A stretch of 64,000 nucleotides of DNA from an uncultured virus (IMG/VR IMGVR_UViG_3300030380_005539) (Duplodnaviria; Heunggongvirae; Uroviricota; Caudoviricetes), in the IMG/VR virus record IMGVR_UViG_3300030380_005539, positions 1-64,000 of that record; one strand, written 5' to 3'. The notes below the pieces were generated by a model. It was not told the origin of the DNA and made no database searches. It saw only the letters and a program-made list of their open reading frames with translations. Made by a program: the position numbers and the translations under genes. Below are positions 1,667 to 44,604 of the stretch, in pieces; positions within the stretch are counted from its first letter, which is position 1, and each line of letters begins with the position of its first letter.

Positions 1667-2062
1667 ATGAAAATTAAAAAGAATGGTAAGGTAATTAGAT
1701 TAACAGAATCAGACCTTAAAAGAATTGTAAAAAGAGTATTGACTGAAGAAAAACTTAATGAACAGTGGTATAAAGATCTTTGGAATGATGTAAAAAGAGA
1801 TGCTAACTATATTGCAAGAGATATTAAAAGAGCGGCGGCAGAGATTCCTGATATTCCAGGAAGTTTTAAAAAATTAGGTGACTACTTAACAGATGGTAAA
1901 AACTGGGAACAAGTAGCAGCCGGTTTTAAACAAATGGGTAAAGAATTAGGTTTAGTTGACGAACAAGATGAAAAAGGTGGTTCTATGAAAGATAAACTTA
2001 AATCAGCTTTAGGAAACAAAACGTTTGAGAAAATAATGAAGTTAGTTAAGGCGGCTGAATAA
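1667..2062 (+). CDS. hypothetical protein with LTE-type leader (putative head-internal protein)
   Basis: Begins MKIKKNGKVIRLTESDLKRIVKRVLTEE; TATTTAT upstream. Confidence 0.8.
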   Translation: MKIKKNGKVIRLTESDLKRIVKRVLTEEKLNEQWYKDLWNDVKRDANYIARDIKRAAAEIPDIPGSFKKLGDYLTDGKNWEQVAAGFKQMGKELGLVDEQDEKGGSMKDKLKSALGNKTFEKIMKLVKAAE

Positions 2063-2087
2063 TAAAAGACTATCAATTAAATTTTAT

Positions 2088-2384
2088 ATGAAAATCAAAA
2101 AAAATGGTGAAGTAGTTAATTTAACAGAATCTGAATTAAAAGAAATTGTTAAACAATATAAAATTAAAAGATTTTTATCTGAAGATAGAGAGTCTAGGAT
2201 GACAGAAGATAAAAAAATTAAAATTAAGTCTATAATCAACAAGATTACTGAGTTAACTAATATTTTAAAAACTGCTGACACTAATTCCGAATCATTAGAA
2301 ACTTTACATAAGTTAGAGATGTCTATAGAAAAAGAAATTGAAAGATTAGAAGATAAAATTAATAAAGTAGAAGAAAAAAAATAA
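2088..2384 (+). CDS. hypothetical coiled-coil protein with LTE-type leader
   Basis: Begins MKIKKNGEVVNLTESELKEIVKQ, near-identical to the preceding gene's leader. Confidence 0.8.
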   Translation: MKIKKNGEVVNLTESELKEIVKQYKIKRFLSEDRESRMTEDKKIKIKSIINKITELTNILKTADTNSESLETLHKLEMSIEKEIERLEDKINKVEEKK

Positions 2385-2389
2385 ATGTT

Positions 2390-3226
2390 ATGAAAAAGCA
2401 TATGTTAAAAGAAACAAATGATATGAGAAGGTTAATGAACCTTCCTTTGTTAAAAGAAGAAATGGAATCTGCCGGTAAAGAAGATAAAAAAGCTTCTGGT
2501 GATTTGGATGAAATGAAAAATTATGGTGATCATCAAGAAAGAGATGAATTCGATGATAGAGAAAGCGAAGTAATTGGAGTGGATTCTGATATCGACAAAC
2601 AAAGGTTACAAAAAGAAGGAGAAGAATCATTACCAACAATGAAAGAAATGAAGAAATGTGTTTCTGAAGGTATGTCTAAGAAAGCGGTATGTGAAAAATA
2701 CGGTGGTTGTGATCAAGAGAAACTTAAAGAAATGTATGATTCATGTAAATCAATGAATGAAGAAGATACACTTAAAGAAGCAACTATGGAAGAAAAGAAT
2801 AAATACTGTCAAAAACATTTTAAATGTGATTATAAAGATTGTACTGACAAGCAAAAAGCACAATGTGACGAAAATTGTGGTAAAGCAATGAATGAAGATT
2901 CTGAAGGTGAAGAAACTTATAACTATGGTGAAGATGAAGGACATGATCATATGGAAGAAATGTCTATGGAAGATCATATAAAAGCAATTGAAGATCATTT
3001 GGGACACCTTAAGAAAGATATGTCTTTTGATGAAGATCACGAAGATAGAGATGAGAAAGGTACTCATTTCGCAGAAGGTAAAAGATACAGTAAAGTATTA
3101 AATACCCTTACTGAATCAGAATATAACAGATTAAGAAAATATGTATCTAACGGTAAAAAATATAATAAAATATTAAATACACTTACTGAATCGGAAATCA
3201 AAAAATTAAAGAAGTTTATTAAATAA
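2390..3226 (+). CDS. acidic modular protein with Cys-rich modules and a C-terminal LTESE tandem repeat
   Basis: Leader MKKHMLKETNDMRRLM; two 25-aa repeats GKxYxKxLNTLTESE near the C-terminus. Confidence 0.8.
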   Translation: MKKHMLKETNDMRRLMNLPLLKEEMESAGKEDKKASGDLDEMKNYGDHQERDEFDDRESEVIGVDSDIDKQRLQKEGEESLPTMKEMKKCVSEGMSKKAVCEKYGGCDQEKLKEMYDSCKSMNEEDTLKEATMEEKNKYCQKHFKCDYKDCTDKQKAQCDENCGKAMNEDSEGEETYNYGEDEGHDHMEEMSMEDHIKAIEDHLGHLKKDMSFDEDHEDRDEKGTHFAEGKRYSKVLNTLTESEYNRLRKYVSNGKKYNKILNTLTESEIKKLKKFIK

Positions 3227-3250
3227 TTTTCATTTTAATTTTAAAAATTT

Positions 3251-3283: not shown

Positions 3284-3291
3284 ATAAAATA

Positions 3292-3323: not shown

Positions 3324-3342
3324 TATTATAAAATTAATAATT

Positions 3343-7010: not shown

Positions 7011-7538
7011 ATGAAACAAATTATACGTAAAATATTAAAAGAAGAGGTAACTACCCAACAAGACAACTATCAAAGGAAAATGATAGAGATATTAAAGCGT
7101 GAAGGATTCGATGCTAGAACACCCTACCAAAAAATATTAAATTATCTTAATAGTGTAATGAATATTGTTGGAATGGAGGCGTTTGAGATGTATCAATTAT
7201 TTAAAGATAATGTTAGTACTATATCTAATAATCCTTTAGTAAGAAAAGACATAAAGGATAGGAAGATGAGAACTGCAAATATTAGATCTAGAGATTTAGT
7301 TATTAACAGAATACCATTTAAAGGTAATAATACACATGCAGAATATAGAAATGGTGCGTATGTGGTATTTTCTTATGGTTGGTATCCTGTATTTGTTTAT
7401 AAGGATGGACAATGGTTTGAAAATGAAGAGGGTTATTCTATGTCCACTAAAAAACAAATGAGTCAAATGAGACCATGGAATCAGGGAGAAATAATTAAAA
7501 CCAATAAAGATAAATTGTGGGATATTATTAGAGGATGA
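7011..7538 (+). CDS. hypothetical protein with IRKILKEE-type leader
   Basis: Begins MKQIIRKILKEE; C-terminal YVVFSYG...YS.ST.KQ module. Confidence 0.8.
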   Translation: MKQIIRKILKEEVTTQQDNYQRKMIEILKREGFDARTPYQKILNYLNSVMNIVGMEAFEMYQLFKDNVSTISNNPLVRKDIKDRKMRTANIRSRDLVINRIPFKGNNTHAEYRNGAYVVFSYGWYPVFVYKDGQWFENEEGYSMSTKKQMSQMRPWNQGEIIKTNKDKLWDIIRG

Positions 7539-8014
7539 AAAAATTAATTAAAAAAATTTTAAGGGAAGAGTATAGTGAAAGGATTGAGGACTATAAAAAA
7601 ATTATGTCTACACAATGGCAAGAATACTTCACTAACAAAAAAATATTACCATTAATAATAAAATATTTAGATAGTATCATTAATATAGATATGATTGTTA
7701 AATCCGATAATTCCACAACGTATACCGTTTATTTTGATGATGTAGAACCTATCGCTAAAAATTATTGTTATGGGTGTAGTGGTACATTCCATTACCCTAC
7801 AGGTACACACGACATATATAATGTAGTACATGCGGAAGATAACGATCAATTTGTTAGTGCAGTGGAGTTAGCGATAATAGATATGTTCGGTGGTGAATCA
7901 AGTGATATGGAATTTTATAGTATTATTTATCAATATTTATTTGATAGAATAAAAAAACATATGGATAATGATCCCATAAATGATTATCCTGAAGAACACG
8001 ATATGGATTGGTAA
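7535..8014 (+). CDS. hypothetical protein with IRKILKEE-type leader
   Basis: Begins MKKLIKKILREE. Confidence 0.8.
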   Translation: MKKLIKKILREEYSERIEDYKKIMSTQWQEYFTNKKILPLIIKYLDSIINIDMIVKSDNSTTYTVYFDDVEPIAKNYCYGCSGTFHYPTGTHDIYNVVHAEDNDQFVSAVELAIIDMFGGESSDMEFYSIIYQYLFDRIKKHMDNDPINDYPEEHDMDW

Positions 8015-8892
8015 TGAAAAAATTAATTAGAAAAATATTAAAAGAGGAAACATTAAACTTTAATAAGTTTGAATTGGGCGTATTTAAAATTATCGATAAG
8101 GTTGGTATTGAAAAATTTATTGGTGAGTATCTTAGAGATATGGGTCTAGATGTTGACGAAGAGGAAAATGTTCTTTTTGAATACTTTAATGCGTATGGTG
8201 GTGGATGTGATGACTATATTAATTTTGTATTAGAGGCAGACGAAATTTCAAATATGTTTTACGATGGCGATTATGGTATACAAAATATGGTAAAAAGGTT
8301 TTTAGAAGATGATTATGATTATACGTATGATGGTTACGAATGTTATTATGACGAATATCAATTAGATGATATTAATGAAGAGAACATGAAAACCATAATA
8401 AAAATATATGAATCACAAAAAGAGGAAGATGAAACCTTAAGAGAATTTATTAAAAACGGTGATTTAGAAAGTGTGATTGGTTGTGCATATAGTGACGCAC
8501 AACAAAATGCCGATATAAATGCATTACATGAAGACTTTTTAGATGGGGTACATGAAGTAACCGATAAAATAGAGGGTAAATGGGATTGGGATACCCACAC
8601 ATTAAAAGGTAGAATATCGGTTTGTGAGATAATGAATCATGAAGGCGCATTAGAGATACTGTCAGAAAGTTTACAACACGGCTATGATTGGAATGAGGTC
8701 GTTGACACCATAGTTGAAAGAGAGTGGGAAGAAGTTTGGAATGGTGATGAAGGAGATGTTTTATTTGGTGAACCAGTAGCTATAGATGAGTATAGACATT
8801 TCAGATATGGTGGTGCCGGAACAATAGATAAACAAGAATTTAATGAGTACTTAAATAATAGATTATACGATGAGTATAGTTCTTTTATGTAA
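8014..8892 (+). CDS. acidic hypothetical protein with IRKILKEE-type leader
   Basis: Begins MKKLIRKILKEE at ATG 8014 (TAATG coupling to the previous stop). Confidence 0.8.
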   Translation: MKKLIRKILKEETLNFNKFELGVFKIIDKVGIEKFIGEYLRDMGLDVDEEENVLFEYFNAYGGGCDDYINFVLEADEISNMFYDGDYGIQNMVKRFLEDDYDYTYDGYECYYDEYQLDDINEENMKTIIKIYESQKEEDETLREFIKNGDLESVIGCAYSDAQQNADINALHEDFLDGVHEVTDKIEGKWDWDTHTLKGRISVCEIMNHEGALEILSESLQHGYDWNEVVDTIVEREWEEVWNGDEGDVLFGEPVAIDEYRHFRYGGAGTIDKQEFNEYLNNRLYDEYSSFM

Positions 8893-8944: not shown

Positions 8945-9064
8945 ATGAAAACAAGAAGAGGTTCTATTAGACTGACTGAACAAGACTTAGTAAAGTTGGT
9001 TAAGGATTTAAATGTTAAAACAAAGACTTCAAAATCTAAAGTTTTAGCAACAAGTTCAAAATAA
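8945..9064 (+). CDS. 39-aa micro-protein consisting mostly of the LTE-type leader
   Basis: MKTRRGSIRLTEQDLVKLVKDLNVKTKTSKSKVLATSSK; TATTTAT at 8900; below the ORF-track cutoff. Confidence 0.6.
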   Translation: MKTRRGSIRLTEQDLVKLVKDLNVKTKTSKSKVLATSSK

Positions 9065-9148: not shown

Positions 9149-10018
9149 ATGAAATCACTCATCAGAAAAATACTTAAAGAAGAAACACAACAAAGATCAC
9201 TAAAGGATGTAATTTTTGATGATTTAGTTAATACATTTAACGAAGAAGTATTAATTTATGATTGGGGACCAGAATATTATAACTGTATAAAGGCAATTAA
9301 GAATATTATTAATAATGCAGCCATACCACATATTGAGGATGTTTATAGTTTAGACTATTTTGAAAACGAAGATTTAATTAAACCTATTTTAGATAAATTT
9401 GTTAGATATTTGTATAACGATGATTATCCAATGGTTGGGGACACCATTGAAATGATTGAAATGGAGGGAGAAGATCCAAACCCGATACTACCGGGAACAA
9501 AGGGTGTAGTAACTAGAATAGACTCACAAGTTATTTCAGGTATACCTGAAGAACATTTATGGATTAATTGGGAAAATGGTAGAACTTTAAAAGTTTTATT
9601 ACCACATGATAAAATTAAAATAATCAAAAGAGGTGAAAGCAGTAGAGGTGTTATTGGACGATTAGAGTTAACGGAAGATAAAATAGATGATTTTGTTGAT
9701 TTTGTAAGTGGTGATTTAGAATTAGATGATAACTTTACCGTAGATATTACAAATGATTCTGACGATGTAGAAACATTGGCAAGTTACGATATTAACAATA
9801 ATGAAGTAACAGTATTAGGTAAAGATAGAGCTTTACCAGATATCATTCGTTCTGTTGCACATGAATTAGTTCACCATAAACAAAATGAGAGAGGTGAATT
9901 AACAGGTAGAAAAGAAGAAGGTGAAGATGGTTCACCGTGGGAAGATGAAGCAAATGCAAAAGCCGGAGAACTTGTTCGTAAATATGGTAGAGAGAATCCT
10001 GAAATTTATGAAACGTAA
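9149..10018 (+). CDS. leader + DUF4314-like domain + zincin-type (HExxH) metallopeptidase-like domain
   Basis: MKSLIRKILKEE; GDTIEMIEM...PGTKGVV...WENG; IRSVAHELVHHKQ...WEDEANAKAG. Confidence 0.75.
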   Translation: MKSLIRKILKEETQQRSLKDVIFDDLVNTFNEEVLIYDWGPEYYNCIKAIKNIINNAAIPHIEDVYSLDYFENEDLIKPILDKFVRYLYNDDYPMVGDTIEMIEMEGEDPNPILPGTKGVVTRIDSQVISGIPEEHLWINWENGRTLKVLLPHDKIKIIKRGESSRGVIGRLELTEDKIDDFVDFVSGDLELDDNFTVDITNDSDDVETLASYDINNNEVTVLGKDRALPDIIRSVAHELVHHKQNERGELTGRKEEGEDGSPWEDEANAKAGELVRKYGRENPEIYET

Positions 10019-11513: not shown

Positions 11514-12098
11514 ATGAAAATTATTATTACAGAAAATCAGTTAAAAAAAGTAATTTTATCTGAAGGCGAGCAAGATTGGGAAAAGAAAGTAAAAGAATTT
11601 AAAAAAAGTGTCTCTGAAATAGCCAAAAAGGTGGACAATATAGGTTTAGGTAGTCCTATTGCCACTTTTTTAACCAGAATTGCAGCAACTGAGTCATGTT
11701 ATGGATTAAATAAGACTAATGGTAAAAATAACGTATTTCAAGTAGATGATATTGCGTTTGATGATACTCAAGACATTAAATCACATCCCGGACTGAAGGA
11801 AAAGTTCAAAATAATAAAAGACAAAACAGGTATTAATTGGTCTGGAGAAACTTACACTAATATTAGGGGTGATAAGTTTAAGAATGGGATTGCCGCTAGA
11901 TTATTATTGGGTAATAAACCTGGTAAGATACCCACAGATTTGAATGGACAAGCTAAATATTGGAAAAAATATTATAATACTGGATCTGGTGAAGGTGGTG
12001 AACAAGATTTTATCGATAAGAATGAAGGAGACGGTTTAGAGCACTGTATTTATTATGGTAAAAAAGAAATAGATAAAAATAAAAAGAAAGATGGGTAG
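11514..12098 (+). CDS. LTE-type leader + lysozyme-like fold (putative muralytic protein)
   Basis: MKIIITENQLKKVILSE; IAATESCYG...FQVD...QAKYWKKYYNT..G.G. Confidence 0.6.
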   Translation: MKIIITENQLKKVILSEGEQDWEKKVKEFKKSVSEIAKKVDNIGLGSPIATFLTRIAATESCYGLNKTNGKNNVFQVDDIAFDDTQDIKSHPGLKEKFKIIKDKTGINWSGETYTNIRGDKFKNGIAARLLLGNKPGKIPTDLNGQAKYWKKYYNTGSGEGGEQDFIDKNEGDGLEHCIYYGKKEIDKNKKKDG

Positions 12099-14271: not shown

Positions 14272-14643
14272 ATGGCAAATAAAAAAACAGTAAGATTAAC
14301 AGAATCTGAAATGGTTACTTTAATCGAAAATATTGTAAATCAAGTTAAATCTGAAAAGAAAAGAAAAATTAACGAATCTCGCAAACCTAATTTACTTAGG
14401 GAGAGACAATACAGACTTTTAATGGAGTCTGCAAATGCTGAATTAGAAGCAGATTTAGAATCTGTAGAAGGAGATCCAGAAAAAGAAGAAAAATTACTCG
14501 ATAAAATAGAAAATTTTATAGAACAAAAAAAATGTGATATAAAAAGTTTCTCTAGAAAAATGAAAATGAAAATTAAAAGATTATTTAGAAAATCTAAAAG
14601 AAAAGGAAGAAAAAATTTATCTATACTATGTCCAAAATGGTAA
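14272..14643 (+). CDS. hypothetical protein with LTE-type leader and basic C-terminus
   Basis: Begins MANKKTVRLTESEMVTLIENIV; internal INE, LRE and LME sites. Confidence 0.8.
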   Translation: MANKKTVRLTESEMVTLIENIVNQVKSEKKRKINESRKPNLLRERQYRLLMESANAELEADLESVEGDPEKEEKLLDKIENFIEQKKCDIKSFSRKMKMKIKRLFRKSKRKGRKNLSILCPKW

Positions 14644-21807: not shown

Positions 21808-21813
21808 AATTGG

Positions 21814-21845
21814 TTTGTCTTTATTAATAAATATCATTATATTTG
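21814..21845 (+). promoter_or_regulatory. Bacteroidota-type promoter for the methyltransferase, overlapping the divergent TATTTAT motif of clpC
   Basis: TTTG 21814-21817, N20, TATATTTG 21838-21845; ATAAATA at 21827-21833 within the spacer. Confidence 0.7.
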
Positions 21846-31692: not shown

Positions 31693-31959
31693 ATGAAAAA
31701 GATAAAATTAACAGAAAAGGATTTATTGAGAATAGTTAAGAAAACTATTAAGGAAGATAGAAAAACTGAAAATTACATGTTTTTTAGTAACCTTAAACAA
31801 ATGAGAAGACAGATTGATATGATGTTGGAAAATTTAAATCCTCATTGGGTAGATTCAACATTGGCAGATGGGCACGATTGGGCAGATGATAAGATAAGTG
31901 AATCTAAAACAAATATTGATAGTGTATTCGATTTCTTTATGAATAAAAAAGAAGAGTAA
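31693..31959 (+). CDS. hypothetical protein with LTE-type leader
   Basis: MKKIKLTEKDLLRIVKKTIKE from ATG 31693. Confidence 0.8.
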   Translation: MKKIKLTEKDLLRIVKKTIKEDRKTENYMFFSNLKQMRRQIDMMLENLNPHWVDSTLADGHDWADDKISESKTNIDSVFDFFMNKKEE

Positions 31960-33464: not shown

Positions 33465-34301
33465 ATGAAGATTAAATTAACAGAGGAACAATATCGTAAG
33501 TTTGTATCGGAAGATACTAACCGCACTAACTTTATGGATAAAGTTTATAAAGAAATTGAAAATGATGATTTTGAATATGTTTGGGATTTAATAGTAAATA
33601 CATATGGGTTTACTGTAGATGAAGTTATAGAAGATGAGATGTTATATCACTTATTAGGTTATAAAATGTTAGATAGAGTACGAAATTCGGGTTACTTAGG
33701 TTTTAATCCTAGACCTTATAGAAGGTATATGAATGCAATTGCAGAAAAACTTAGTGATGACGTATATGTATCCAATATCCCACCCCCACAGAAGGCAATA
33801 GAACTAAAACAAATACTTTATTTATTTGATGATTCGGTGGCAGGAAATGAAACCGTAGAAAGAATTCTATTGTCAATAGAACCCGCACTAGAATACCTTT
33901 TTAAAAATAACCCACCTAAAAAAGCAATACAATTAGCATCAATTTTATATAAAAAAATAAGGGGTATAGGTTTTGATGGGGAAATTATAAATAAAATTCA
34001 TAATTTTGCAGAAAGACACGGACTAGTGCTATTCCCTAAAACTGCGGGACTAACTTTTGAGAAAAAGGATGGTATGATACAGTCACTAATAAATTACATT
34101 CAAGAAAAACCTAAGAAAACTAAAGAAGGATTTTTAAGATATATAAATTCTAGAGGTAGATCATCAGGACAACACTCAACATTTTTTAGAGCGGCAGTAC
34201 ATGCGGGTATTATTAAAAAAGTTAGGGATGGTAGAACAATCACTTACGAATTAGGACCCAATTACGAAGCGTGGAAAAACGGTAATTTAGTTGCATTTTA
34301 A
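33465..34301 (+). CDS. hypothetical protein with LTE-type leader, possible C-terminal winged helix
   Basis: MKIKLTEEQYRKFVSE; C-terminal STFFRAAVHAGIIKKVRDGRTITYELG. Confidence 0.75.
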   Translation: MKIKLTEEQYRKFVSEDTNRTNFMDKVYKEIENDDFEYVWDLIVNTYGFTVDEVIEDEMLYHLLGYKMLDRVRNSGYLGFNPRPYRRYMNAIAEKLSDDVYVSNIPPPQKAIELKQILYLFDDSVAGNETVERILLSIEPALEYLFKNNPPKKAIQLASILYKKIRGIGFDGEIINKIHNFAERHGLVLFPKTAGLTFEKKDGMIQSLINYIQEKPKKTKEGFLRYINSRGRSSGQHSTFFRAAVHAGIIKKVRDGRTITYELGPNYEAWKNGNLVAF

Positions 34302-34342: not shown

Positions 34343-36136
34343 ATGGATAGAGGACAACAATTAAAGGTATATGCGAAGTGTTTGGGTGATCCTATATACG
34401 CAATAGAGACGTTTCTTAAAACATATGATTTAACACAAAAAGGATTTGTTCCTTTTAAATTATTTCATAAACAGAAAGAAATAATTAAATCATATGAAAA
34501 ACATAATCGTAATATTGTAACTAAACCAAGACAGGCAGGTGTATCTACAACTACTGCAGCATATATTGCAGCAAAAATTGCGTTTGGTGATCCTAATAAT
34601 CCTTGGAAAGTACTAGTATTAGCCAATAAACAAACATTAGCACAAGAGTTTTTAAAAAAAATAAAAGATTTCTTAGATCAGATACCATCATGGGTATGGG
34701 GTATTGATGAAGGGGATTCTTATTTATCTATTGAAGCCAAAGGACATATCAAAACTAAAGACACTCAATGTGAAGTAAAAGCATTAGCAACATCAAAAGA
34801 TGCACTTAGGGGTTATACACCGACATTTTTAATTATGGATGAGGCAGCGTTTATCGATAATGGTGCAGAAGTATTCGGTGCCGCTTTAACATCGTTAGGT
34901 ACGGGTGGTAAGGTAACACTTATTTCAACACCTAATGGTCAAGATGCATTATATTATAAAACTTATGATGGTGCAAAACAAGGGGATAATAACTTCAATA
35001 TAATTGAAATGAGGTGGCATGAAGATATTAGATACAATAGAGGTTTAAGGTGGTTAAGAGGTGAAAATGAGGAAATTGTTTGTGAGACAGTAGGTAGAGA
35101 AACATTAAGGTGGGAATATAGTGGTAAAACTTACGAAACTAATAGTATAGATATTAAAGACTATAATATAATGGTTAGTGATGGTTGGAAAGGTTCTTCT
35201 CCATGGTATGAAGAAATGTGTAGAGACATGAATGGGGATAAAAAACAAATTGCACAAGAATTAGATGTATCATTTGTATCCTCTGGTGGTAATGTTATTG
35301 ATGATGAATACATAGAATTTCAAGAACAAAATAATGTACAAGAACCTAAATATAAGGCAGAGATGGAAAAATCTATGTGGATATGGAAAGAACCAGAAGA
35401 AGGTCATAAATATATTATGGGTGTGGATGTTTCTAGAGGTGATGGTAAAGATAGTTCTACTATTGTTATTTTAGATTTTGAAAACTTAGAACAAGTTGCA
35501 GAATTTAAATATAAATTACCTCCAGATTTGTTGGCAGAAATAGTTTATAAATATGGTAATTTATATAATGCATATACTGTAGTAGATATTACAGGTGGTA
35601 TGGGAGTTTCTACAGTTATGAAATTATTAGAAATGGGATACACACATTTACACTACGATGATCCTAAAAGTAGAAAATTAAGTGAAAAATATGCTAAAAC
35701 CTTATATAAACAAGGGGATAAAGTACCTGGTTTTAATGTGGGTAGTAGTAGATTACAAATGGTTAGTGATTTAGAAGAACATATTAGGGAGAATAAAACT
35801 ATTATACGATCAGTAAGATTAATTTCAGAATTAAAAACTTTTGTCTATAGAAATGGTAGACCAGATCATATGGATGGATATCATGATGATATAATTATGG
35901 CATTAGCAATGCCAATATTTGTGGTACAAACTACGTTTAAAAAATTAAAACAGATAGAAAATCAAACTAGAGCAATGTTAGATAGTTGGACTACAGTTAG
36001 TAATAATACTAATAAGATTACACCTAAACAAACACATGTAAATCCATTTTATAGTAATACCCCTACATATGAACCTAAACAAAATAATGGAAATAACGAT
36101 AATGGAGAATATAATTGGTTATTTGGTATAAAGTAA
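34343..36136 (+). CDS. terL: terminase large subunit (T4 gp17-like)
   Basis: Walker A KPRQAGVST, Walker B LIMDEAAF, STPNG coupling motif, nuclease motifs GVDVSRG and HDDIIMA. Confidence 0.95.
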   Translation: MDRGQQLKVYAKCLGDPIYAIETFLKTYDLTQKGFVPFKLFHKQKEIIKSYEKHNRNIVTKPRQAGVSTTTAAYIAAKIAFGDPNNPWKVLVLANKQTLAQEFLKKIKDFLDQIPSWVWGIDEGDSYLSIEAKGHIKTKDTQCEVKALATSKDALRGYTPTFLIMDEAAFIDNGAEVFGAALTSLGTGGKVTLISTPNGQDALYYKTYDGAKQGDNNFNIIEMRWHEDIRYNRGLRWLRGENEEIVCETVGRETLRWEYSGKTYETNSIDIKDYNIMVSDGWKGSSPWYEEMCRDMNGDKKQIAQELDVSFVSSGGNVIDDEYIEFQEQNNVQEPKYKAEMEKSMWIWKEPEEGHKYIMGVDVSRGDGKDSSTIVILDFENLEQVAEFKYKLPPDLLAEIVYKYGNLYNAYTVVDITGGMGVSTVMKLLEMGYTHLHYDDPKSRKLSEKYAKTLYKQGDKVPGFNVGSSRLQMVSDLEEHIRENKTIIRSVRLISELKTFVYRNGRPDHMDGYHDDIIMALAMPIFVVQTTFKKLKQIENQTRAMLDSWTTVSNNTNKITPKQTHVNPFYSNTPTYEPKQNNGNNDNGEYNWLFGIK

Positions 36137-36188: not shown

Positions 36189-38141
36189 ATGGCAAGAAAA
36201 ACAATATTTCAACAGTTAAGTGACTTATTTGGTCCTGAAAGAAAACAAGCGGAAAGTAAATCAAGATATTCAATAAACGATAAAGAGTTGTTAAAAACTC
36301 AATCAAAAGAAGAATATGATTATGAATTACTTCAAAAACAACAAGACGCATATCTAGCGAATCAATGGAAAAAGGTAGACAATGAGATTTACCAACACTC
36401 AATATATTATGAAACAACAAGATTGGCATCTTATGCAGATTTTGAGGGGATGGAATTCTTTCCAGAAATTGCTGCGGCGTTGGATATTTTTATGGAGGAA
36501 TCTACAACACCTAATAGTGATGGTAAAATACTTAATATATTTTCAGAAAGTAAAAGAGTAAGAAGAATATTACAAGACTTATTTTTTAATAGACTAGATA
36601 TTCACACTAACTTACCAATGTGGGTGAGAAACACATGTAAATATGGTGATAATTTTTTATATTTGTCTATCGATAGTGAAGATGGAGTCCAAAGTGTAAA
36701 ACAATTACCTAATATTGAAATTGCGAGAAAAGAAAATGATGGATTTGGTGAAAATTCTAACTTATCTACACAAGATAAATTTAATCCAGTTAAATTTGTG
36801 TGGGGACAAAAAGATATGGAGTTTAATGCGTGGCAAGTGGCACACTTTAGATTATTAGGTGATGATAGAAGATTACCATATGGGACTTCTATTTTAGAAA
36901 AAGCTAGAAGAATTTGGAAACAATTACTTTTGTCCGAAGATGCTATGTTAATATATAGAGTAACTAGAGCACCTGAAAGAAGAATATTTAAAATATTTGT
37001 TGGTAACATCGATGAGAAAGATGTACCAGCATATGTGAACAAAATCGCAGATAACTTTAAAAGAAGTCCTGTAATTGACCAACAAACAGGACAAATAGAT
37101 ACACGTTACAATCAAATGGCACAAGATCAAGATTATTTTGTACCTGTAAGGGATCAAAATGCACCTAGCCCTATTGATACTCTTCCTGGTGCTACTAACC
37201 TATCTGAAATTGCTGATATACAATTCCTTCAAAAGAAATTATTTACTGCATTAAGAGTACCTAAACCATTTTTAGGTTTTGAAGAAGTAACAGGTGAGGG
37301 TAAAAATTTAGCATTACAAGATATTAGATTCTCTAGGACAATTAATAGAGTACAACAGGCAATTATACAAGAATTAAATAAAATTGCAATCATACACCTT
37401 TATATTTTAGGTTTAGAAGATGAATTAGAAAATTTTACATTAACACTTAATAACCCATCTACACAAGCAGAGATGTTGAAGATAGAACAAACCCAATTAA
37501 AAGTTACCTTATATAAAGACGCAGTGTCAGACGCAGGTAATGGGTTTGGTGCTTATTCTATGACTAGAGCTAAAAGAGATATATTAGGTATGTCTGAAGA
37601 AGAAATACGCAATGACTTAGAACAACAAAGAATGGAAAAAGCGGCTAGTGCAGAAATGGAACAAACGTCTACAGTAATTAAGAAAACAGGTATCTTTGAT
37701 AGAGTTGATACATTATATGGTGATCCAATGGGTGCTGAAGGAGAATCTGGAGGTGACGCAGCAGGAGGTGATATGGGTGGAGACACTGGTGGTGATGACT
37801 TCGGAGGTGGATCTGACTTTGGTGCAGACTTAGCTGGTGGTATGGATGATGCTGCGGCTACTGATGCAGGTGGAGAAGCAGCGGCAGCTGAAGCGGGTGC
37901 AGCAGTCGAATCTATAGACAAAAAAGAAAATCTTTTAATGGAAGAAAAACAAAGAGAAGTGTTAAATAGTAAAGTTAAAAAATATCAAAATATGTACTTC
38001 AAAAGATTAATGGAAAGTATAGATGAAAATGAAAAAGTTTTTAATGTAGAAAATTTAGACGATGAAGTTAATACAATTAACTCTAAGATAGAAGAAATGT
38101 CAAAAGAAATAGATAGTATTATTGAAAACGAAGAAAAGTAA
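36189..38141 (+). CDS. portal protein (T4 gp20-like) with C-terminal Gly/Asp-rich extension
   Basis: LLSEDAMLIYRVTRAPERRIFKIFVGN, DYFVPVR, IDTLPG, LFTALRVPK, DIRFSRTI. Confidence 0.93.
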   Translation: MARKTIFQQLSDLFGPERKQAESKSRYSINDKELLKTQSKEEYDYELLQKQQDAYLANQWKKVDNEIYQHSIYYETTRLASYADFEGMEFFPEIAAALDIFMEESTTPNSDGKILNIFSESKRVRRILQDLFFNRLDIHTNLPMWVRNTCKYGDNFLYLSIDSEDGVQSVKQLPNIEIARKENDGFGENSNLSTQDKFNPVKFVWGQKDMEFNAWQVAHFRLLGDDRRLPYGTSILEKARRIWKQLLLSEDAMLIYRVTRAPERRIFKIFVGNIDEKDVPAYVNKIADNFKRSPVIDQQTGQIDTRYNQMAQDQDYFVPVRDQNAPSPIDTLPGATNLSEIADIQFLQKKLFTALRVPKPFLGFEEVTGEGKNLALQDIRFSRTINRVQQAIIQELNKIAIIHLYILGLEDELENFTLTLNNPSTQAEMLKIEQTQLKVTLYKDAVSDAGNGFGAYSMTRAKRDILGMSEEEIRNDLEQQRMEKAASAEMEQTSTVIKKTGIFDRVDTLYGDPMGAEGESGGDAAGGDMGGDTGGDDFGGGSDFGADLAGGMDDAAATDAGGEAAAAEAGAAVESIDKKENLLMEEKQREVLNSKVKKYQNMYFKRLMESIDENEKVFNVENLDDEVNTINSKIEEMSKEIDSIIENEEK

Positions 38142-38183: not shown

Positions 38184-38945
38184 ATGACTAATTTTGGACA
38201 CATAAAGGACACTTTTAATAATATATTATCTGAATCTATTTTAACTAAAAATAATGAAGGTAAAAAATTATTTAAAAAATATATACAAGTACTTAAAGAA
38301 GATAGTAGCTTAAAAAGAGAATATCTTATTTATAAAAACTTAACTACTAAAAAATTTAATAATGAATCTGACGCTAAAGATTATATCAAAGAAAACATAG
38401 ATTTATTAAAAAATAACAATCCATCTAAAGGATTAAATAAACTTAAAAGTATTCTAGGTGATAAGGAATTAGTAAATGAAAATGATGAAATATATAAACA
38501 TCTTAATATTTTACGTAACACTAAAAAGACACCTAATAGTTTAGAAAAAATACAAAAGTCTTTAAATTTCTTTAAAGAAAGAATGTTAAAAGAAGAAATA
38601 ATAGTAGAAAGTGAATATGATGCTACAGGTGTACCACCTTCAATTTTAACTAAATTAGCAGTAAATAAATTTAATAACAAATATGAAAATATTAGTGAAG
38701 AAGAAAAAAGTATTATTAAAAACATTTTAAACGGTAATGAGGAAGATAAGAAAGAAACTTATACTAATTTAAAAAATGAGTGTATAGATATTATTGATAA
38801 ACGTTTAAATGAAAATTCAGATTTAGATTTAAAAGATAAACTTTTAAAAGTTAAAGATAAATTATTAAGAACATCTTTTAATGAAGAAACATTCCCTACT
38901 GATATCGATAGTATATATAATTTAAAAAATTCAGTAACAGAATAA
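38184..38945 (+). CDS. hypothetical protein in the head module (possible core protein)
   Basis: Between portal and protease; TATTTAT upstream; several [LIV]xE sites. Confidence 0.75.
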   Translation: MTNFGHIKDTFNNILSESILTKNNEGKKLFKKYIQVLKEDSSLKREYLIYKNLTTKKFNNESDAKDYIKENIDLLKNNNPSKGLNKLKSILGDKELVNENDEIYKHLNILRNTKKTPNSLEKIQKSLNFFKERMLKEEIIVESEYDATGVPPSILTKLAVNKFNNKYENISEEEKSIIKNILNGNEEDKKETYTNLKNECIDIIDKRLNENSDLDLKDKLLKVKDKLLRTSFNEETFPTDIDSIYNLKNSVTE

Positions 38946-39051: not shown

Positions 39052-39486
39052 ATGAAACGAGGAAAAGAATTAAAATTAGATTTAAACCCAAATTATAAAA
39101 TAAAAGTTGGGACGGTGGATAATAAAAACCCAAAAACAATATACATAAATCTCTCCGCTTGGGGACAATTAAAAAAATATGATATAGATTTAAACTATGA
39201 AGGTGTAATTAATAAATTAAGAAAAAATATTAAACACAAAATTAATAGTTATAATTTAAATGAATTCCATAGAGGAAAATATATAGTAGATCTTGATATG
39301 AGATCTTCAGGTATAAAACCAACCAAAAGAAGTTTTATGTCTTGTGAAATAACTTTATTTCAAAAAGAATCAATACCTGTTAATAATCCATTAATTGTAG
39401 ATTCATCTAAACAAATTATAAAAGATGTTATAAAAGATTGTTTAGACACTAACAACCATTTCTCTTTTTATAAAACTAAAAACTAA
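39052..39486 (+). CDS. hypothetical protein
   Basis: 144-aa ORF. Confidence 0.75.
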   Translation: MKRGKELKLDLNPNYKIKVGTVDNKNPKTIYINLSAWGQLKKYDIDLNYEGVINKLRKNIKHKINSYNLNEFHRGKYIVDLDMRSSGIKPTKRSFMSCEITLFQKESIPVNNPLIVDSSKQIIKDVIKDCLDTNNHFSFYKTKN

Positions 39487-39533: not shown

Positions 39534-40223
39534 ATGGAAATTTTAAAAAACAATGAGTTAAATAAAAAAGGTATCTTAGTAGAATATGATGCGGGATACA
39601 TCTCTCCTAAAGATAATAGACACTTCATTAATGAAATAAATAAACTAACTAAAGGTGGACAAATAGTCGAAGATCCTTTAGTTGTTTATGCAGTAATGCA
39701 AAAATATGGTGTGGAGAATAGAAATGGTAGAGTATATCCTGAAAAGATACTTAAAAAAGAATCTGAAAACTATATGAAACTTATTGAAGAAAAAAGGGCT
39801 ATGGGTGAGGCAGACCATCCAGATTCTTCAATTGTTGCTATTAGTAGAATTTCTCATAACGTAACTGAACTATGGTGGGAAGGTAATGTGCTAATGGGTA
39901 AATTAGAAATCATTATGTCACCAGGATTTGTTACACAAGGTATTATATCATGTGAAGGAGATCAAGTTGCTAACCTTTTAAGAAAAGGTTTAAAGATAGG
40001 TGTATCATCTAGAGGTGTAGGTTCATTAAAAAAAGAAGATGGTAAAAACATTGTACAAGATGACTTCGAATTAATATGTTGGGATGTAGTTACTTCACCA
40101 TCAACACCAGGATCTTGGATATATAATGAATCACCTTCCAAAGAACAACAAATGTCCGAATCTAAAGAAAATAAAGATAAAGATTTATTAATTGATTCTT
40201 TAGATAATTTTTTGTCAGATTAA
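39534..40223 (+). CDS. prohead core protease (T4 gp21-like)
   Basis: NRNGRVYP, GEADHP, GVSSRGVGS, WDVVTSPSTPGS. Confidence 0.93.
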   Translation: MEILKNNELNKKGILVEYDAGYISPKDNRHFINEINKLTKGGQIVEDPLVVYAVMQKYGVENRNGRVYPEKILKKESENYMKLIEEKRAMGEADHPDSSIVAISRISHNVTELWWEGNVLMGKLEIIMSPGFVTQGIISCEGDQVANLLRKGLKIGVSSRGVGSLKKEDGKNIVQDDFELICWDVVTSPSTPGSWIYNESPSKEQQMSESKENKDKDLLIDSLDNFLSD

Positions 40224-40337: not shown

Positions 40338-41840
40338 ATGGCTACAAAAAGAAAATCAATCATCGAAGAGGCTTTGTTAGAAGCGAAGTCTTTAGAGGAT
40401 GCCTTAAAAGCCAATACGAAAGAAATGCTTGCTTCACATATGAAACAAGAAATTGAGAACATCGTTGAGTCGTCTCTAAATGAACAAGAAGACGAAGAAG
40501 AATTAGAAATCGATGTGGAAGGGTCCGATGAAGAAATGGAAGAAATGCCAGCAGAAGCTGGAGATGACTCAGAAGAGTCAGAATTAATGGATTTAGATGT
40601 CGATCTTGACGCTTTGGCGGGAGACGGTGGTGAAGAAGTTGAATTAGATGTTGCTGAATTACCTGCAGAATTAGATATGGGTGATGAGGAAGAATTAGAT
40701 TTAACTGGTGCATCAGACGAAGAAGTAATCGCAGTATTTAAGAAAATGAGCGATGAAGACGAAGTTGAAGTTGTTAAAGACGCTGACGGAATCCACTTAA
40801 CAGATAACGAAACCGGTGCAGAATACTACATCAAAGAAGGTGACGAACATTATGAAGAATCATACGATAGTCTTGACGAAGAGGAAGGATGTATGAATGA
40901 GGAAGCAGGATGTGGTAAAAAATATGAAGGTCACGATCCTATTGACGAAGAAGTAATGTACGAAATCGAACTTTCTGAAGAACAACCTTATGGAGGCAAT
41001 AAAGGAGACGAATCTAAAAGTCGTAGAGATTACATGGAAGAAGGTAAATATGGCGGCAATAAAGGAGACGAATCTAGAAGTCACAGAGACTATATGGAAG
41101 AAGGTGAATATGGCGGAAATAAAGGCGATGAGTCTAGAAGTCACAGAGACTATATGGAAGAAGGTGAAGACTATATGGAAGAAGGTGAAGACTATATGAA
41201 AGAAGGTGAATATGGCGGAAATAAAGGCGATGAGTCTAGAAGTCATAGAGACTATATGGATGAAACCGAAGAAATCGTTGATTTAGACGAAGAAGAAGCA
41301 ATCGAAGAAGACAAACTTAAAAGACACCAATCAACTGGTTACCAAAGATATAGTGGTGCCAAAGCTGGGTCAGATCAAGCAAGTCCTTACGGTGGTGTAT
41401 CAGAATCTAGAAAAAGAAGAACACCTAAAAATGTACAAAAAGTATCGGAATCAAAAATTATGAAGGAATACAAAGAGTTAAAATCCAAAAACGAAGAGTA
41501 TAAAGGAGCACTTAAAGTATTCAAGAATAAGTTAAACGAAGTTGCTTTATTCAACACAAATTTAGCATACGTAAATAGATTATTCACTGAACATTCTACA
41601 ACCAAATCAGAAAAGATGGAAATCTTAAAAAGATTTGATAATGCAGAAAGTATCAAAGAATCAAAATCTATCTACAAGTCAGTAAAAAGTGAATTAGATT
41701 CTAAGTCACCAATTACAGAATCTGTAGAGAATAAAGTTAATAAAACTGTTAAGTCTTCTAAATCGGATTTGAATGAATCTACTGCTTATGTAGATCCACA
41801 AATAACTGCGATTAAAGATTTGATGAGAAAATTATCATAA
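40338..41840 (+). CDS. prohead scaffold/core protein (T4 gp22 position) with internal peptide repeats
   Basis: Acidic coiled-coil protein between protease and capsid genes; many [LIVM]xE sites. Confidence 0.8.
   Translation: MATKRKSIIEEALLEAKSLEDALKANTKEMLASHMKQEIENIVESSLNEQEDEEELEIDVEGSDEEMEEMPAEAGDDSEESELMDLDVDLDALAGDGGEEVELDVAELPAELDMGDEEELDLTGASDEEVIAVFKKMSDEDEVEVVKDADGIHLTDNETGAEYYIKEGDEHYEESYDSLDEEEGCMNEEAGCGKKYEGHDPIDEEVMYEIELSEEQPYGGNKGDESKSRRDYMEEGKYGGNKGDESRSHRDYMEEGEYGGNKGDESRSHRDYMEEGEDYMEEGEDYMKEGEYGGNKGDESRSHRDYMDETEEIVDLDEEEAIEEDKLKRHQSTGYQRYSGAKAGSDQASPYGGVSESRKRRTPKNVQKVSESKIMKEYKELKSKNEEYKGALKVFKNKLNEVALFNTNLAYVNRLFTEHSTTKSEKMEILKRFDNAESIKESKSIYKSVKSELDSKSPITESVENKVNKTVKSSKSDLNESTAYVDPQITAIKDLMRKLS
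40989..41264 (+). repeat. coding tandem repeat: four 60-bp-type units (YGGNKGDESRSHRDYMEEG) with two 21-bp partial units (EDYMxEG)
   Basis: Lines 40981, 41041 and 41101 align at period 60; fourth unit starts at 41211. Confidence 0.95.
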
Positions 41841-41876
41841 AATAATAAAATAACAAAAAAATAAAAAACTCAAAAA

Positions 41877-43619
41877 ATGGGACATTTATTAAATTCAGGT
41901 GAAGTTGGAAATATCGGACTTGAACACTTGAAGCAAATTAGATCTAAAACCATCGGAAAATGGGATTCTTTAGGATTCTTAGAAGGTTTAAAAGGTCACG
42001 TAAAAGAGAACATCGCTCAGTTATACGAAAACCAAGCTTCAGCTTTATTGACAGAAGCAACAGATGCTCAATCGTCTGGTTCTTTCGAAACTGTAGTTTT
42101 CCCTATCGTAAGAAGGGTATTCTCAAAATTATTGGCTAACGATATCGTATCGGTACAGGCGATGAACATGCCAATTGGAAAATTATTCTACTTTGTACCA
42201 AAAACAACTGGAAGAAATCACAATCCTTTAAATGGTAATGCTGAAAACGGTTCTTTACCAGAATGTGTATTTAGTTCTTGTAGTGGAAATGCCGTTTCAG
42301 AATTCTTACAAAAATCATTATATGATGTATTCTATAATGATGGTATGTTTGATGCATCTAAAGGTACTGCTACAATTTTTGAATCTACCGCTTATGGTGT
42401 TATTGTAAGTGCAAACGGTGAAACTGTTGTTACTGCATTTGACGATCAACCAGCTGCTGCTGATGGATCAGTTAGAAATCTTACAATGTGTGTATCAGGA
42501 TTTACATCTGCTGGAGCTGGAAGATTAACTGGACCTGACGGAAACGAAATGGATACAGAATCTTTCTTATCTTCATTAAGAATTGTTGCTGATGTTGATA
42601 TCGTAGACGGTGATGGTGAAGTTATTATCACTGCTGGTGATTCAATTCCATTTAACTTAACTGCACAAGTATACGGTAAAGGTATCGTTAATTATGATGA
42701 TATCTGTGATCCACAAGGATGTTTAATGTTAACTGCAGACTTATCTCACCCAGCGTGTGTTAGTTGTAATGCAGGTACATTCGATGGTTATATCGGAGCA
42801 GTAACAGGAACTAATCCTACAATTACTGCATCTTGGATGCAATATGCAACTTTAGAATTTGCAACTGAAATGGGAGAAGTTTCTTTCGAACTTGATGAAG
42901 TAGTTGTTTCGGTAACTGAAAGAAAATTAAGAGCAACTTGGTCTCCAGAATTAGCACAAGACGTTAGTGCATTCCATAACATTGATGCTGAAGCTGAATT
43001 AACGGCTTTATTATCTGAGCAAGTAGCAGCTGAAATCGACAGGGAAATCCTTAGAGATTTAAGATCTGGTGCAGCTTGGACATTAAGATGGGATTACAAC
43101 GGATGGAAAAGAGCTAATAATGGTGGTGGATTTAACGCATACACTCAGAAAGAGTGGAATCAGACGTTAATCACTAGAATTAACCAATTATCTGCACAAA
43201 TTCATAAATCAACTCTAAGAGGTGGTGCTAACTTTATCGTAGTTTCTTCTGAAGCTTCTGCGATATTTGATGATTTAGAATACTTCCACGTATCTAACGC
43301 AGCACCAGAGCAAGATCAGTACAATATGGGTATTGAGAAGATTGGTTCATTAGGAGGAAGATACACTGTATATAGAGATCCTTACGCACCAGCTAACTCA
43401 ATCATTGTTGGACACAAAGGAAAGTCATTATTGGACACTGGGTACATTTATGCACCTTACGTACCATTACAATTGACTCCTACGTTACAAAACCCATTCA
43501 ACTTTGCACCAACTAAGGGTATCATGACTAGATACGCTAAGAAAATGGTTAATAACCGTTTCTACGCAACGTTGACAATTGATGGAGTTGTAACATTTGA
43601 TGTTAACTTATTAAGATAA
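41877..43619 (+). CDS. major capsid protein (T4 gp23-like)
   Basis: VFPIVRRVF...VSVQAMNMPIG; RKLRATWSPELAQD...IDAEAELT...EIDREI; YAPYVPL...GIMTRY. Confidence 0.95.
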   Translation: MGHLLNSGEVGNIGLEHLKQIRSKTIGKWDSLGFLEGLKGHVKENIAQLYENQASALLTEATDAQSSGSFETVVFPIVRRVFSKLLANDIVSVQAMNMPIGKLFYFVPKTTGRNHNPLNGNAENGSLPECVFSSCSGNAVSEFLQKSLYDVFYNDGMFDASKGTATIFESTAYGVIVSANGETVVTAFDDQPAAADGSVRNLTMCVSGFTSAGAGRLTGPDGNEMDTESFLSSLRIVADVDIVDGDGEVIITAGDSIPFNLTAQVYGKGIVNYDDICDPQGCLMLTADLSHPACVSCNAGTFDGYIGAVTGTNPTITASWMQYATLEFATEMGEVSFELDEVVVSVTERKLRATWSPELAQDVSAFHNIDAEAELTALLSEQVAAEIDREILRDLRSGAAWTLRWDYNGWKRANNGGGFNAYTQKEWNQTLITRINQLSAQIHKSTLRGGANFIVVSSEASAIFDDLEYFHVSNAAPEQDQYNMGIEKIGSLGGRYTVYRDPYAPANSIIVGHKGKSLLDTGYIYAPYVPLQLTPTLQNPFNFAPTKGIMTRYAKKMVNNRFYATLTIDGVVTFDVNLLR

Positions 43620-43642
43620 TCTTAATAATACAACTTAATACT

Positions 43643-43678
43643 AAAAAGGGTGGAATTTATTTTCTACCCTTTTTTTTT
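43643..43678 (+). terminator. Rho-independent terminator after the capsid gene
   Basis: AAAAAGGGTGGAA / TTCTACCCTTTTT stem with a T run. Confidence 0.8.
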
Positions 43679-43713
43679 GTTTTATAAGATATTTATTATT
43701 ATATTAGCATACT

Positions 43714-44604
43714 ATGATTATTAAGAAAAAGCACGTATTATTAGAATCACTTTTAATTGACACTATTGATGAGTTTACACCACAAGAAAAAAAGTTATTA
43801 TCTGTTCTTCATCAGAAATTTGGTATGGCATCAGGTAAGATTGAAAAATCGTGGAATTTTGATAAGTGGGCTGCAGCAGCATTCTTAATAGAATTTTTTG
43901 AAATACCTTATGATATTGCACACGATTTGGCATCTACGTATTTTTGGAATGGTGAAAAATTGTTTAAGGAGTTCGAAAGTCTTAGGAAAAAAAATAATAG
44001 AAGTGATTTATTTATGAATCACGCATTTAGAGATATATTAGATGACTACATTGAATCAAAGAAAAATGAAGATAATAATTTTTATCTAACAAAACCTGTA
44101 GAATATAACGTTAAAACTCAAAATGAAAATGAGGTACTTCCTGGTATAATATATCAAAGTTTCCCACCAAGAAGTTATAAGGAATTGGAGGAATCTAGAA
44201 AAGAAGCAAATGAAGTAAAATTATCTGTAAGACCTCTGGTTTGGTCTACTTATAATGGTGTGATGTTATATATTCAACCTACTGAAGAAAATATTATAGA
44301 ACCAAAGGATATAGAGGCTACTAGTTGGGATACTATGCGTAATATGGGTATAACTGCATCAATACGATTAGATTATTATAAAGATGAAGATGAAAAATCT
44401 CAAAATTATCTTCAAGGTAAATGTGAATATAAATTCGGACATGAGTATAAAGATGAGGGTATAATATGGACTGAGGACATAAAATTACCTGAAGTTTTAT
44501 CTAAGGAAAGTGTTATTGAATTTATAGATATGTTAATAGAAAAATTACGTTCTACACTTAATGGAATGACGTTTATTTATGGTAAAGGTGTAAAAGACGA
44601 CTAA
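43714..44604 (+). CDS. hypothetical protein
   Basis: 296 aa; TATTTAT upstream; N-terminus ends in VLLE. Confidence 0.75.
   Translation: MIIKKKHVLLESLLIDTIDEFTPQEKKLLSVLHQKFGMASGKIEKSWNFDKWAAAAFLIEFFEIPYDIAHDLASTYFWNGEKLFKEFESLRKKNNRSDLFMNHAFRDILDDYIESKKNEDNNFYLTKPVEYNVKTQNENEVLPGIIYQSFPPRSYKELEESRKEANEVKLSVRPLVWSTYNGVMLYIQPTEENIIEPKDIEATSWDTMRNMGITASIRLDYYKDEDEKSQNYLQGKCEYKFGHEYKDEGIIWTEDIKLPEVLSKESVIEFIDMLIEKLRSTLNGMTFIYGKGVKDD

Follow-up and report, generated by a model that had tools for sequence, protein, structure and literature searches.

The first 64,000 nucleotides of an uncultured virus of the class Caudoviricetes, a marine T4-like and probably giant phage (IMG/VR record IMGVR_UViG_3300030380_005539; hereafter the window), encode a set of otherwise unrelated proteins that begin with one of a few short, shared N-terminal leaders. 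We observe 17 robust leader genes in the window, 10 of class A, 4 of class B and 3 of class C, and one partial case at 2390 (genes are named here by their start position). The window is the start of one 127,027-bp virus record with a G+C content of ~28-30%, and six further leader genes lie beyond it on the same contig (98827, 106976, 107863, 108285, 109386 and 112509). In total, 23 leader genes are found among ~121 open reading frames (ORFs) of the contig, about a fifth; a preliminary description of the window had counted about 20 genes with shared N-terminal leaders. All 23 are on the + strand, which is the strand of the structural genes. We favour the reading, with a probability of about 0.63, that these leaders are capsid-targeting propeptides of the kind known from phage T4, expanded into several interchangeable classes. 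A T4-style role in capsid targeting is well supported in silico: the leaders are N-terminal, portable and under selection, they end in L-x-E, a prohead protease is encoded nearby, and leader genes share a promoter motif with head genes. The preliminary description had proposed a portable tag from such features, and this part of it stands, but several of its looser leaders and some of its cargo labels failed.

Leaders are confined to protein N-termini

We counted leader-pattern matches in the first 26 residues and at internal positions of 566 ORFs from six related records, where N-terminal positions make up 10.3% of residues. Class A gave 41 N-terminal and 5 internal matches, class B 15 and 0, class C 7 and 0, and a further N-terminus seen in these records, class D (MGRLxKLKRE...), 6 and 0, with patterns that were drawn from those same N-termini. 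An independent repeat on 1060 ORFs used the independently fetched loci of 74 relatives, phages whose capsid proteins are 55-68% identical; here class A matched 27 N-termini and 6 internal positions (p = 4e-23). Both counts uphold the view that the leaders are N-terminal rather than internal. The leader-profile scan that had been suggested at the outset agrees with them: a hidden Markov model built from 84 metagenomic class A leaders was run on the six-frame translation of the contig, and its eight best matches are all starts of + strand ORFs. When the first 40 residues were shuffled for 300 rounds, the patterns of classes A, B and C were found in means of 0.15, 0 and 0.06 genes, compared to 11, 5 and 5 observed, and the shuffled maximum for class A was 2 genes versus 11. 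A tblastn search with a 30-residue leader gave no match at E<=10 among 50,697 phage records, to which the low-complexity filter may have contributed.

One leader is carried by many unrelated cargos

Past the leader, the proteins were said to be unrelated, and we find this to be so: with the first 32 residues removed, 27 leader proteins gave 0 BLASTP matches to one another at E<=0.01. A search with the 131-amino-acid (aa) 1667 protein, which has the canonical class A leader, returned 34 full-length relatives and 86 proteins that are alike at the start only. Of these start-sharing metagenomic proteins, 84 begin MKIKKNG... and are alike through residue 27, and 83 of the 86 are without a Pfam domain. 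The cargo of the 84 proteins with the canonical leader falls into 48 BLAST clusters. Column entropy is <=1.3 bits at positions 1-25 of these 84 proteins and 3.6-4.0 bits, that of random sequence, from position 29, with L25 in 83 and E27 in all 84. In the 1667 family, the leader is nearly invariant while cargo identity falls to 43%.

Selection acts on the leader peptide. Between 12 DNA copies of the leader (66 pairs), synonymous divergence (pS) is 0.644 and nonsynonymous divergence (pN) is 0.101, yielding a pN/pS of 0.157, and the DNA upstream differs between copies. This upholds the synonymous differences that had been noticed between the 1667 and 2088 leaders. In a low-confidence AF2 model of the 1667 protein the leader is predicted to form a hairpin at residues 2-11 and a helix at residues 14-26.

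We also observed the canonical leader fused to a phosphoribosyltransferase domain, a homoserine-dehydrogenase fragment and a LysM domain (P0114, P0118 and P0119), which may be enzyme cargo or assembly chimeras. On a related contig (G002 1-20000, locus L026), ~20 small genes begin MK(V/I/L)(I/L)ITE... and some are true paralogues past the leader (...IE..EYG...); therefore leader-like N-termini can also spread by gene duplication.

Leaders end in the motif of a T4-type prohead protease

The window contains a T4-type head module on the + strand, identified with Pfam and PHROGs. It consists of the large terminase (34343..36136), a T4 gp20-type portal (36189..38141), two candidate core proteins placed by synteny at the T4 gp67 and gp68 positions (38184..38945 and 39052..39486), a prohead protease (39534..40223), an acidic 500-aa scaffold-like protein (40338..41840) and the major capsid protein of the T4 gp23 family (41877..43619; Pfam Gp23, 245 bits). 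From portal through two small genes, protease and scaffold to capsid, the genes follow the order 20-67-68-21-22-23 of the T4 record, and because of its position, that of T4 gp22, and its composition we take the 40338 product to be the scaffold protein. The gp21-like protease that had been claimed is present, as the 39534 protein matches Peptidase_S77, the T4 gp21 family (E 1.6e-25, 90.2 bits against a cut-off of 27), and phrog_207. An S77 protease was seen in 1 of 5 related records, all five of which are fragments rated 10-48% complete.

The leaders end in the kind of motif that this protease family cuts. Class A leaders end in VLTE, VLNE or TLKE, class B leaders in ILKE or ILRE, and class C proteins have LLTE/A, TLNE/S, ILSE/E or NLNE/G ~30 residues in (the slash marks the candidate cut). 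An [LI]xE is found between residues 6 and 34 of 21 of the 23 leader proteins, compared to 40 of 98 others (p = 1e-5). The capsid protein of the window reads ...ENQASALLTE60/ATD, 16 residues ahead of the conserved FETVVFPIVRR, and codons L58-T59-E60 (42048..42056) are its predicted maturation site from alignments and comparison to T4. In 26 aligned capsid N-termini, [LIMQ]-x-E stands at the same place and is mostly followed by A, S or T, and E60 is nearly invariant in an alignment of 71 diverse homologues. The T4 record reads ...FLTE65/AEIGG at the known cut of gp23, and the leaders of the T4 internal proteins (IPs) end in IAE/A (IPII and IPIII) or ITE/A (IPI). As described in the passages of PMC3012670 and PMC9026906 on head maturation, gp23 loses a 65-residue propeptide and gp21 cuts past a short motif ending in Glu. 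By sequence comparison, the leader end is the same L-x-E as the predicted maturation site of the capsid protein and the gp23 site of T4.

Class C leaders match the tail of the scaffold protein

A hint of where leaders may dock comes from class C. The 40338 scaffold-like protein ends ...DLNE/STAYVDPQITAIKDLMRKLS; this C-terminal tail (41778..41837) has LNE just before it and has the core of class C leaders as its own core. The 25244 protein starts ...DRIKDLMGKMSTLNE/STS, in its longer form ...KLDRIKDLMGKMSTLNE/STS, and the remaining class C cores are ERIKDLF, KRMRELM, ERMKSLF and ERIKSLF. All 120 of the close scaffold homologues contain AIKDLM. The gene ahead of the capsid gene in most of 74 more distant relatives encodes a protein ending in ...E/SKTYENPQFLRMKDLMSKIK; R[MI][KR][DE][LI][MI] occurs in 63 of the 74 tails and [LIVM]xE 12-32 residues before the end in all 74. 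The comparison of tail and leader places the motif past the cut site in the scaffold protein and ahead of one in the leaders. Judged by these alignments, class C leaders are copies of the C-terminal tail of the phage's own scaffold protein, a relation that is new here.

A second phage has the same pairing in different letters. Flavobacterium phage vB_FspM_immuto is the closest cultured phage by capsid protein (37.7% identity, 70% query coverage). Its protein in scaffold position has the C-terminus ...SRWQKLAGIIK, and the product of a gene located 14 kb upstream begins MKKQILSEQFRRMQKLAGIITE/SQF, with a leader ...FRRMQKLAGIITE/S. Leader and tail therefore change together, as co-evolution of a docking motif predicts. 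The immuto gene in scaffold position (L035 18659-19900, MW353176) is flanked by the genes of the protease and the capsid protein and bears the annotation 'DNA polymerase phi-like protein'; because of its position, its acidity and a start like that of the window's scaffold protein, it is probably a mis-named scaffold protein. Among the loci of the 74 relatives, class C-type leader genes lie <=10 kb from the capsid gene in 1 (L054), too few for covariation. Pairing the first 40 residues of the 25244 protein with the capsid protein (71-row alignment) in a complex prediction yielded 'no answer' (score 0.00, mark 0.32, controls not run), a neutral result. The scaffold-tail match points to the head core or shell as the likely docking place.

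Portal N-termini, in the window (36189-38141) and at L038, L042, L043 and L035, carry an amphipathic F/LxxLxxLF helix (e.g. TIFQQLSDLF, LTVFQRLNNIF and NLFNSLQRLF) that resembles the class C and scaffold-tail core.

Exchange of classes on one cargo and addition of a leader to another

Gene 108285 encodes a 147-aa protein between the sheath and tube genes. We examined 40 orthologue N-termini, every third of 120 matches, and found a class C-type leader in 3 and a class A-type leader in 37. In all 40 the leader joins the same mature domain at x-E/G(L/I). Classes A and C are thus, by these alignments, interchangeable on one cargo.

The 11514 protein carries a short class A leader on a lysozyme-like domain. 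Its 15 homologues in other viral contigs (27-32% identity) start directly with the domain, without a leader, and among the 16 homologues the extra MKIIITENQLKKVILSE is found only in the window's copy. This comparison argues that the cargo gained its leader as an add-on. The lysozyme-like label itself is supported on the model level: an AF2 model (mean predicted local distance difference test, pLDDT, 81.4) aligns best in VIA-align with the muramidase 8b2e (Z 9.9, root-mean-square deviation 3.0 over 111 residues), and nearly all 50 listed VIA-align rows are muramidases, lytic transglycosylases or phage lysins. E60 is invariant in the 16 homologues. The label found no counterpart in Pfam, however, nor in a Foldseek search of the model against the PDB at E<=0.001.

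Other cargo labels fared less well. The DUF192 domain is real, but its gene (10006-10410) is on the - strand and the leader proposed at 10410 fits no pattern. The leucine-rich repeat (LRR) label for 12379 rests on a match of E 0.009, below the cut-off. The zincin label was not confirmed, as the 12 leader proteins inspected have no HExxH and no zincin Pfam match was found, and the OmpA label for 17268 corresponds to an Atlas lead of 0.76, within the chance range. Searching the PDB by sequence with the proteins 11514, 17268 and 28878 turned up no meaningful match. The cargo types that we do observe include a very basic Cys-rich protein (30381), basic-tailed proteins (14779 and 14272) and acidic scaffold-like proteins (25244 and 2390). 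The basic Cys-rich modules of 30381 (...PSAYANGYAVQVCKG) recur in an immuto protein (L035 4217-4687; ...PSAYRSGAIVRCRKG), which also begins leader-like with IIKEILSE; these modules match phrog_27331 and phrog_23735, both of unknown function.

Leader genes share a candidate late promoter with head genes

The contig has 51 + strand copies and 20 - strand copies of the motif ATATTTAT, and most of the former lie 6-100 nucleotides ahead of + strand starts. It was found <=100 nucleotides upstream of 14 of 23 leader genes and of 26 of 98 others (p = 0.003), which confirms the promoter sharing noted in the preliminary description. It also precedes the terL, portal, 38184, protease, scaffold, sheath, tube and fibre genes. 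Three relatives show the same trend, significantly in one. Motif and ATG are 6 to 81 nucleotides apart. The copy upstream of 1667 is at 1620..1627; in the window, + strand copies of the form ATATTTAT(A/T) start at 1620, 3721, 4150, 6994, 8899, 9136, 11502, 12352, 14027, 14228, 17253, 24845, 30358, 34320, 36154, 38160, 39506, 40259 and 43689, and a + strand copy of ATATTTAT is also found at 7933. The strand-specific ATATTTAT(A/T), located 6-80 nucleotides ahead of structural and leader genes, is likely a late promoter. It differs from T4's TATAAATA, which has no strand bias here (26 vs 33). A 245-aa protein (50208-50945, - strand) matches Sigma70_r2 weakly (E 8e-4, short of the cut-off) and may be a gp55-like late sigma factor that reads ATATTTAT.

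Leader genes of the window

The canonical class A leader is that of the 1667 protein (1667..2062), where it covers residues 1-27 and ends in VLTE; its neighbour (2088..2384, 98 aa) is of the canonical type and diverges past residue 22. A 39-aa class A ORF (8945..9064) holds little beyond the leader and has its own upstream ATATTTAT; it could be a free leader peptide or what is left of a cargo gene. Class A leaders are also found at 14272..14643 (123 aa, basic C-terminus) and 31693..31959 (88 aa), the latter with a mature YMFFSNL domain that is conserved, with class A leaders attached, in many relatives. A shorter class A form begins the 11514 protein (11514..12098; ~17 aa, ILSE/G), a 540-aa protein with a weak LRR signal (12379..14001), the very basic Cys-rich 433-aa protein (30381..31682; VLNE/M) and a 278-aa protein (33465..34301; FVSE/D). 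A 242-aa class A-like protein at 27439..28167 is a weaker match.

Class B leaders (MKxxIRKILKE/E) begin four proteins of 175, 159, 292 and 289 aa (7011..7538, 7535..8014, 8014..8892 and 9149..10018), the last of which has DUF4314 in its mature part. Class C leaders are found on a 557-aa protein with a very basic C-terminus (14779..16452; core KRMRELM, then ILSE/E), on a 442-aa protein (17268..18596; core ERIKDLF, then LLTE/A as in the capsid protein) and on a 597-aa protein with acidic repeats and a basic tail (25244..27037), whose DRIKDLMGKM...TLNE/S mirrors the scaffold tail. All these genes are on the + strand.

Class C had been assigned to 14779, 17268 and 2390 and loosely to 25244. Three of these are robust, including the loose one, but 2390 is C-like only. 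The 2390 gene (2390..3226, + strand) encodes an acidic protein of 278 aa that is rich in Cys; its N-terminus is class C-like and its C-terminus carries two class A-like helices (LNTLTESE...). A homologue (G003 39540-40166, - strand) is 34% identical and has retained both ends while the middle diverged, and the protein may be an adaptor between leader classes. The looser leaders that had been listed at 10410, 28878, 32216 and 43714 do not survive, as they fit no pattern and have only [LI]xE near the start. Of 22 leader positions proposed in all, 21 are ATG starts of + strand ORFs, whereas 10410 is the start of a - strand gene.

Proposed mechanism and alternatives

On the capsid-targeting reading, head core proteins, the capsid protein and leader-tagged proteins would be made together late in infection; promoter sharing is observed and the timing is proposed. 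The leader would dock its cargo onto the assembling prohead. Class A may act as a beta-hairpin with an amphipathic helix (a low-confidence prediction) and class B as a basic helix, while class C, as a copy of the scaffold's docking tail, would use whatever site the scaffold tail uses. The activated gp21-family protease would then cut past L/I-x-E and remove the leader like the N-terminal piece of the capsid protein, a step that we propose because the motif is identical to T4's proven sites. The scaffold tail, with an L-x-E of its own just ahead, would be clipped by the protease as well. By analogy, the freed cargo would stay in the head with the DNA and would include many small orphan proteins, a lysozyme-like enzyme and basic proteins of a DNA-binding-like type; some acidic cargo may act as extra scaffold and then leave, and part of the cargo would probably be ejected into the host like the T4 internal proteins.

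Several points weigh against this reading. The leaders have no sequence similarity to the capsid-targeting sequence (CTS) of T4 (MKTYQEFIAE) beyond MK and the final x-E; because only these are common, they are an analogue of the T4 CTS and no demonstrated homologue. Head cargo that takes up a fifth of all genes would far exceed any measured T4 precedent. The LTE conserved within class A leaders may cap a helix instead of marking a cut site, and the model of the 1667 leader is of low confidence (pLDDT 58.8) and usable for secondary structure alone. The 84 leaders were gathered by leader similarity, so that their internal conservation is partly a result of selection of the sample; the cliff past E27 is unaffected. 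The ~20 small leader-like genes of the G002 contig resemble an early-gene array, yet 10 of 17 have the promoter motif. Finally, six leader genes are in the sheath-tube-baseplate block and none is of a known family; the 1030-aa leader protein of this block could be a tail component.

This last placement, between and past the sheath and tube genes, is also what an unlikely alternative would lead one to see, namely that the leaders are docking or chaperone tags for another late process such as tail or baseplate assembly, recognition by a ClpB-like unfoldase or Hsp20, or membrane targeting, with the L-x-E incidental. The phage does encode a ClpB-like AAA+ protein and Hsp20, and the class A and B helices are basic and amphipathic. 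However, class C leaders copy the tail of a head protein and change with it in a second phage, the exchange of classes A and C on one orthologous cargo leads us to expect one destination, and conservation ends exactly past L-x-E, the predicted cut motif of the capsid protein. T4 likewise scatters its head and tail late genes, which takes weight from the position of the six genes.

It is rather improbable that the leaders are protease-removed propeptides that merely keep proteins inactive or folded until maturation, with head entry through other parts of the protein. The L-x-E end and the S77 protease also fit this, and one cargo is a putative cell-wall hydrolase that might need masking, but 27 near-invariant residues on 48 unrelated cargo clusters are hard to explain by masking. 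The match to the scaffold tail argues for docking, and since the protease acts inside proheads, its substrates must reach there.

In T4-type phages, modular shuffling by shared regulatory cassettes has been described, and the leaders adjoin a shared promoter motif, both of which would suit a nucleic-acid element (a recombination cassette, translational operator or promoter-linked module) with the peptide as a by-product. We rejected this very improbable reading because pS is near saturation while pN is low, upstream regions differ and the distance from motif to ATG varies. Chance in an AT-rich genome, where MK(K/I) starts are common and N-termini rich in Lys and Ile, or one diverged gene family, is hardly credible given the 0-0.15 genes in shuffles against 5-11 observed, 27 mature parts without BLAST similarity, 48 clusters under one leader and the leaderless homologues of one cargo.

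Within the capsid-targeting reading, we can tentatively go one step further, to a possible though doubtful multi-word address code. In it, every class of leader would imitate the docking motif of its own, different component of the prohead core. Under such a code the 2390 protein, C-like at one end and with A-like helices at the other, could bridge two classes. With classes that are interchangeable and end in a protease motif, any gene could be made head cargo by a prefix of 10-30 residues.

Genome context and other features

Related IMG/VR fragments are 32-160 kb and rated 10-48% complete, and an identical 1667 protein is found on a 285-kb contig; on these grounds the whole genome is probably jumbo, at ~300 kb. 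A run of 30 N (masked or unresolved bases) lies at ~1040-1070, between 943 and 1068. The scaffold-like 40338 protein has an acidic middle with ~four tandem YGGNKGDES(K/R)S(R/H)RDYMEEG(E/K) repeats at residues ~218-305, and the scaffold proteins of relatives range from 245 to 580 aa.

The ClpB/ClpA-like protein is a double AAA+ protein with a Clp_N domain (19342-21837, - strand) and the small heat-shock protein Hsp20 is encoded at 22874-23338 (+ strand); a link of the two to the folding or handling of tagged proteins is possible. Two genes on the opposite strand amid the leader genes (16449-17177 and 18650-19282, both -) encode lipoprotein-like signal peptides in the Bacteroidota style (MKKLITLLLV...S(Y)(S/T)Q), and one of them carries DUF2927. 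A minus-strand block at 50946-64000 contains glycosyltransferase-like and sugar-nucleotide-enzyme-like genes, with a GT2 gene at 50946-51743, and may modify the host surface or the virion.

Comparison to known systems and significance

The T4 capsid-targeting sequence was reportedly studied by Mullaney and Black in 1996. Scaffolding proteins such as that of P22 have a C-terminal coat-binding tail, and the scaffold protein here likewise has a short conserved helix motif at its extreme C-terminus; unlike the P22-type tail, the motif is reused here at the N-terminus of other proteins, with the protease site on the cargo side in both. Encapsulin cargo-loading peptides are similar in that a short terminal peptide addresses unrelated cargo into an HK97-fold shell (putative here). 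They are usually C-terminal and are not cleaved off by a protease, and their shells are cellular compartments instead of virions.

The closest precedent is the T4 CTS itself. According to the sections of PMC3012670 and PMC9026906 on internal proteins, a conserved CTS, by which they enter the scaffolding core, is all that those of T-even phages have in common. The first 10 residues are sufficient in IPIII, and the same sections suggest that T4-like phages may use the CTS generally to load varied proteins. The system described here resembles that of IPI, IPII, IPIII and Alt with gp21 in having a short N-terminal tag with an (L/I)-x-E end on unrelated proteins, a gp21-family protease, the head gene order and some basic cargo. 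It differs in its leaders of 11-34 residues in at least three or four classes rather than one, in its 23 genes on 127 kb rather than three IPs and Alt, in one leader being carried by at least 48 cargo clusters, in the class C match to the scaffold tail and the swapping of classes, and in being known from sequence alone. The concept is thus already published for T4; the principle is old, and what is new is the scale and variety.

The giant phages phiKZ, 201phi2-1 and SPN3US also have a diverged gp21-like protease with x-E cuts and many head proteins, whose propeptides are thought to target the core, as outlined in the parts of PMC10052503 on head processing. For SPN3US these parts list nine protease substrates, an A-x-E motif and propeptides mostly of 111-254 residues, and they report no shared leader sequence, whereas the leaders here are short, stereotyped and portable. 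For the leader strings LTESDL, LTESDLKRIV and KIKKNGKVI, no paper was found in a search of the full-text literature, with supplements outside the search, and term searches listed none that reports leader sets of this kind from flavophages or marine T4-like phages. PMC7077304 makes no mention of phage immuto or of virion mass spectrometry.

The match between scaffold tail and leader provides a concrete, testable docking rule, and the same logic is seen in immuto. For loading proteins into non-coliphage capsids, portable leaders that bring their own release site would be useful, and an address code, if true, would yield design rules for cargo loading in non-model phages. If the leaders act like the T4 CTS, the head cargo of abundant marine giant phages would be a large, modular and rapidly exchanged gene pool instead of three or four proteins, and many orphan genes would encode injected proteins, likely anti-defence or take-over factors. 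If the address code is true as well, it would enable giant marine phages to deliver dozens of rapidly evolving proteins and enzymes to their hosts.

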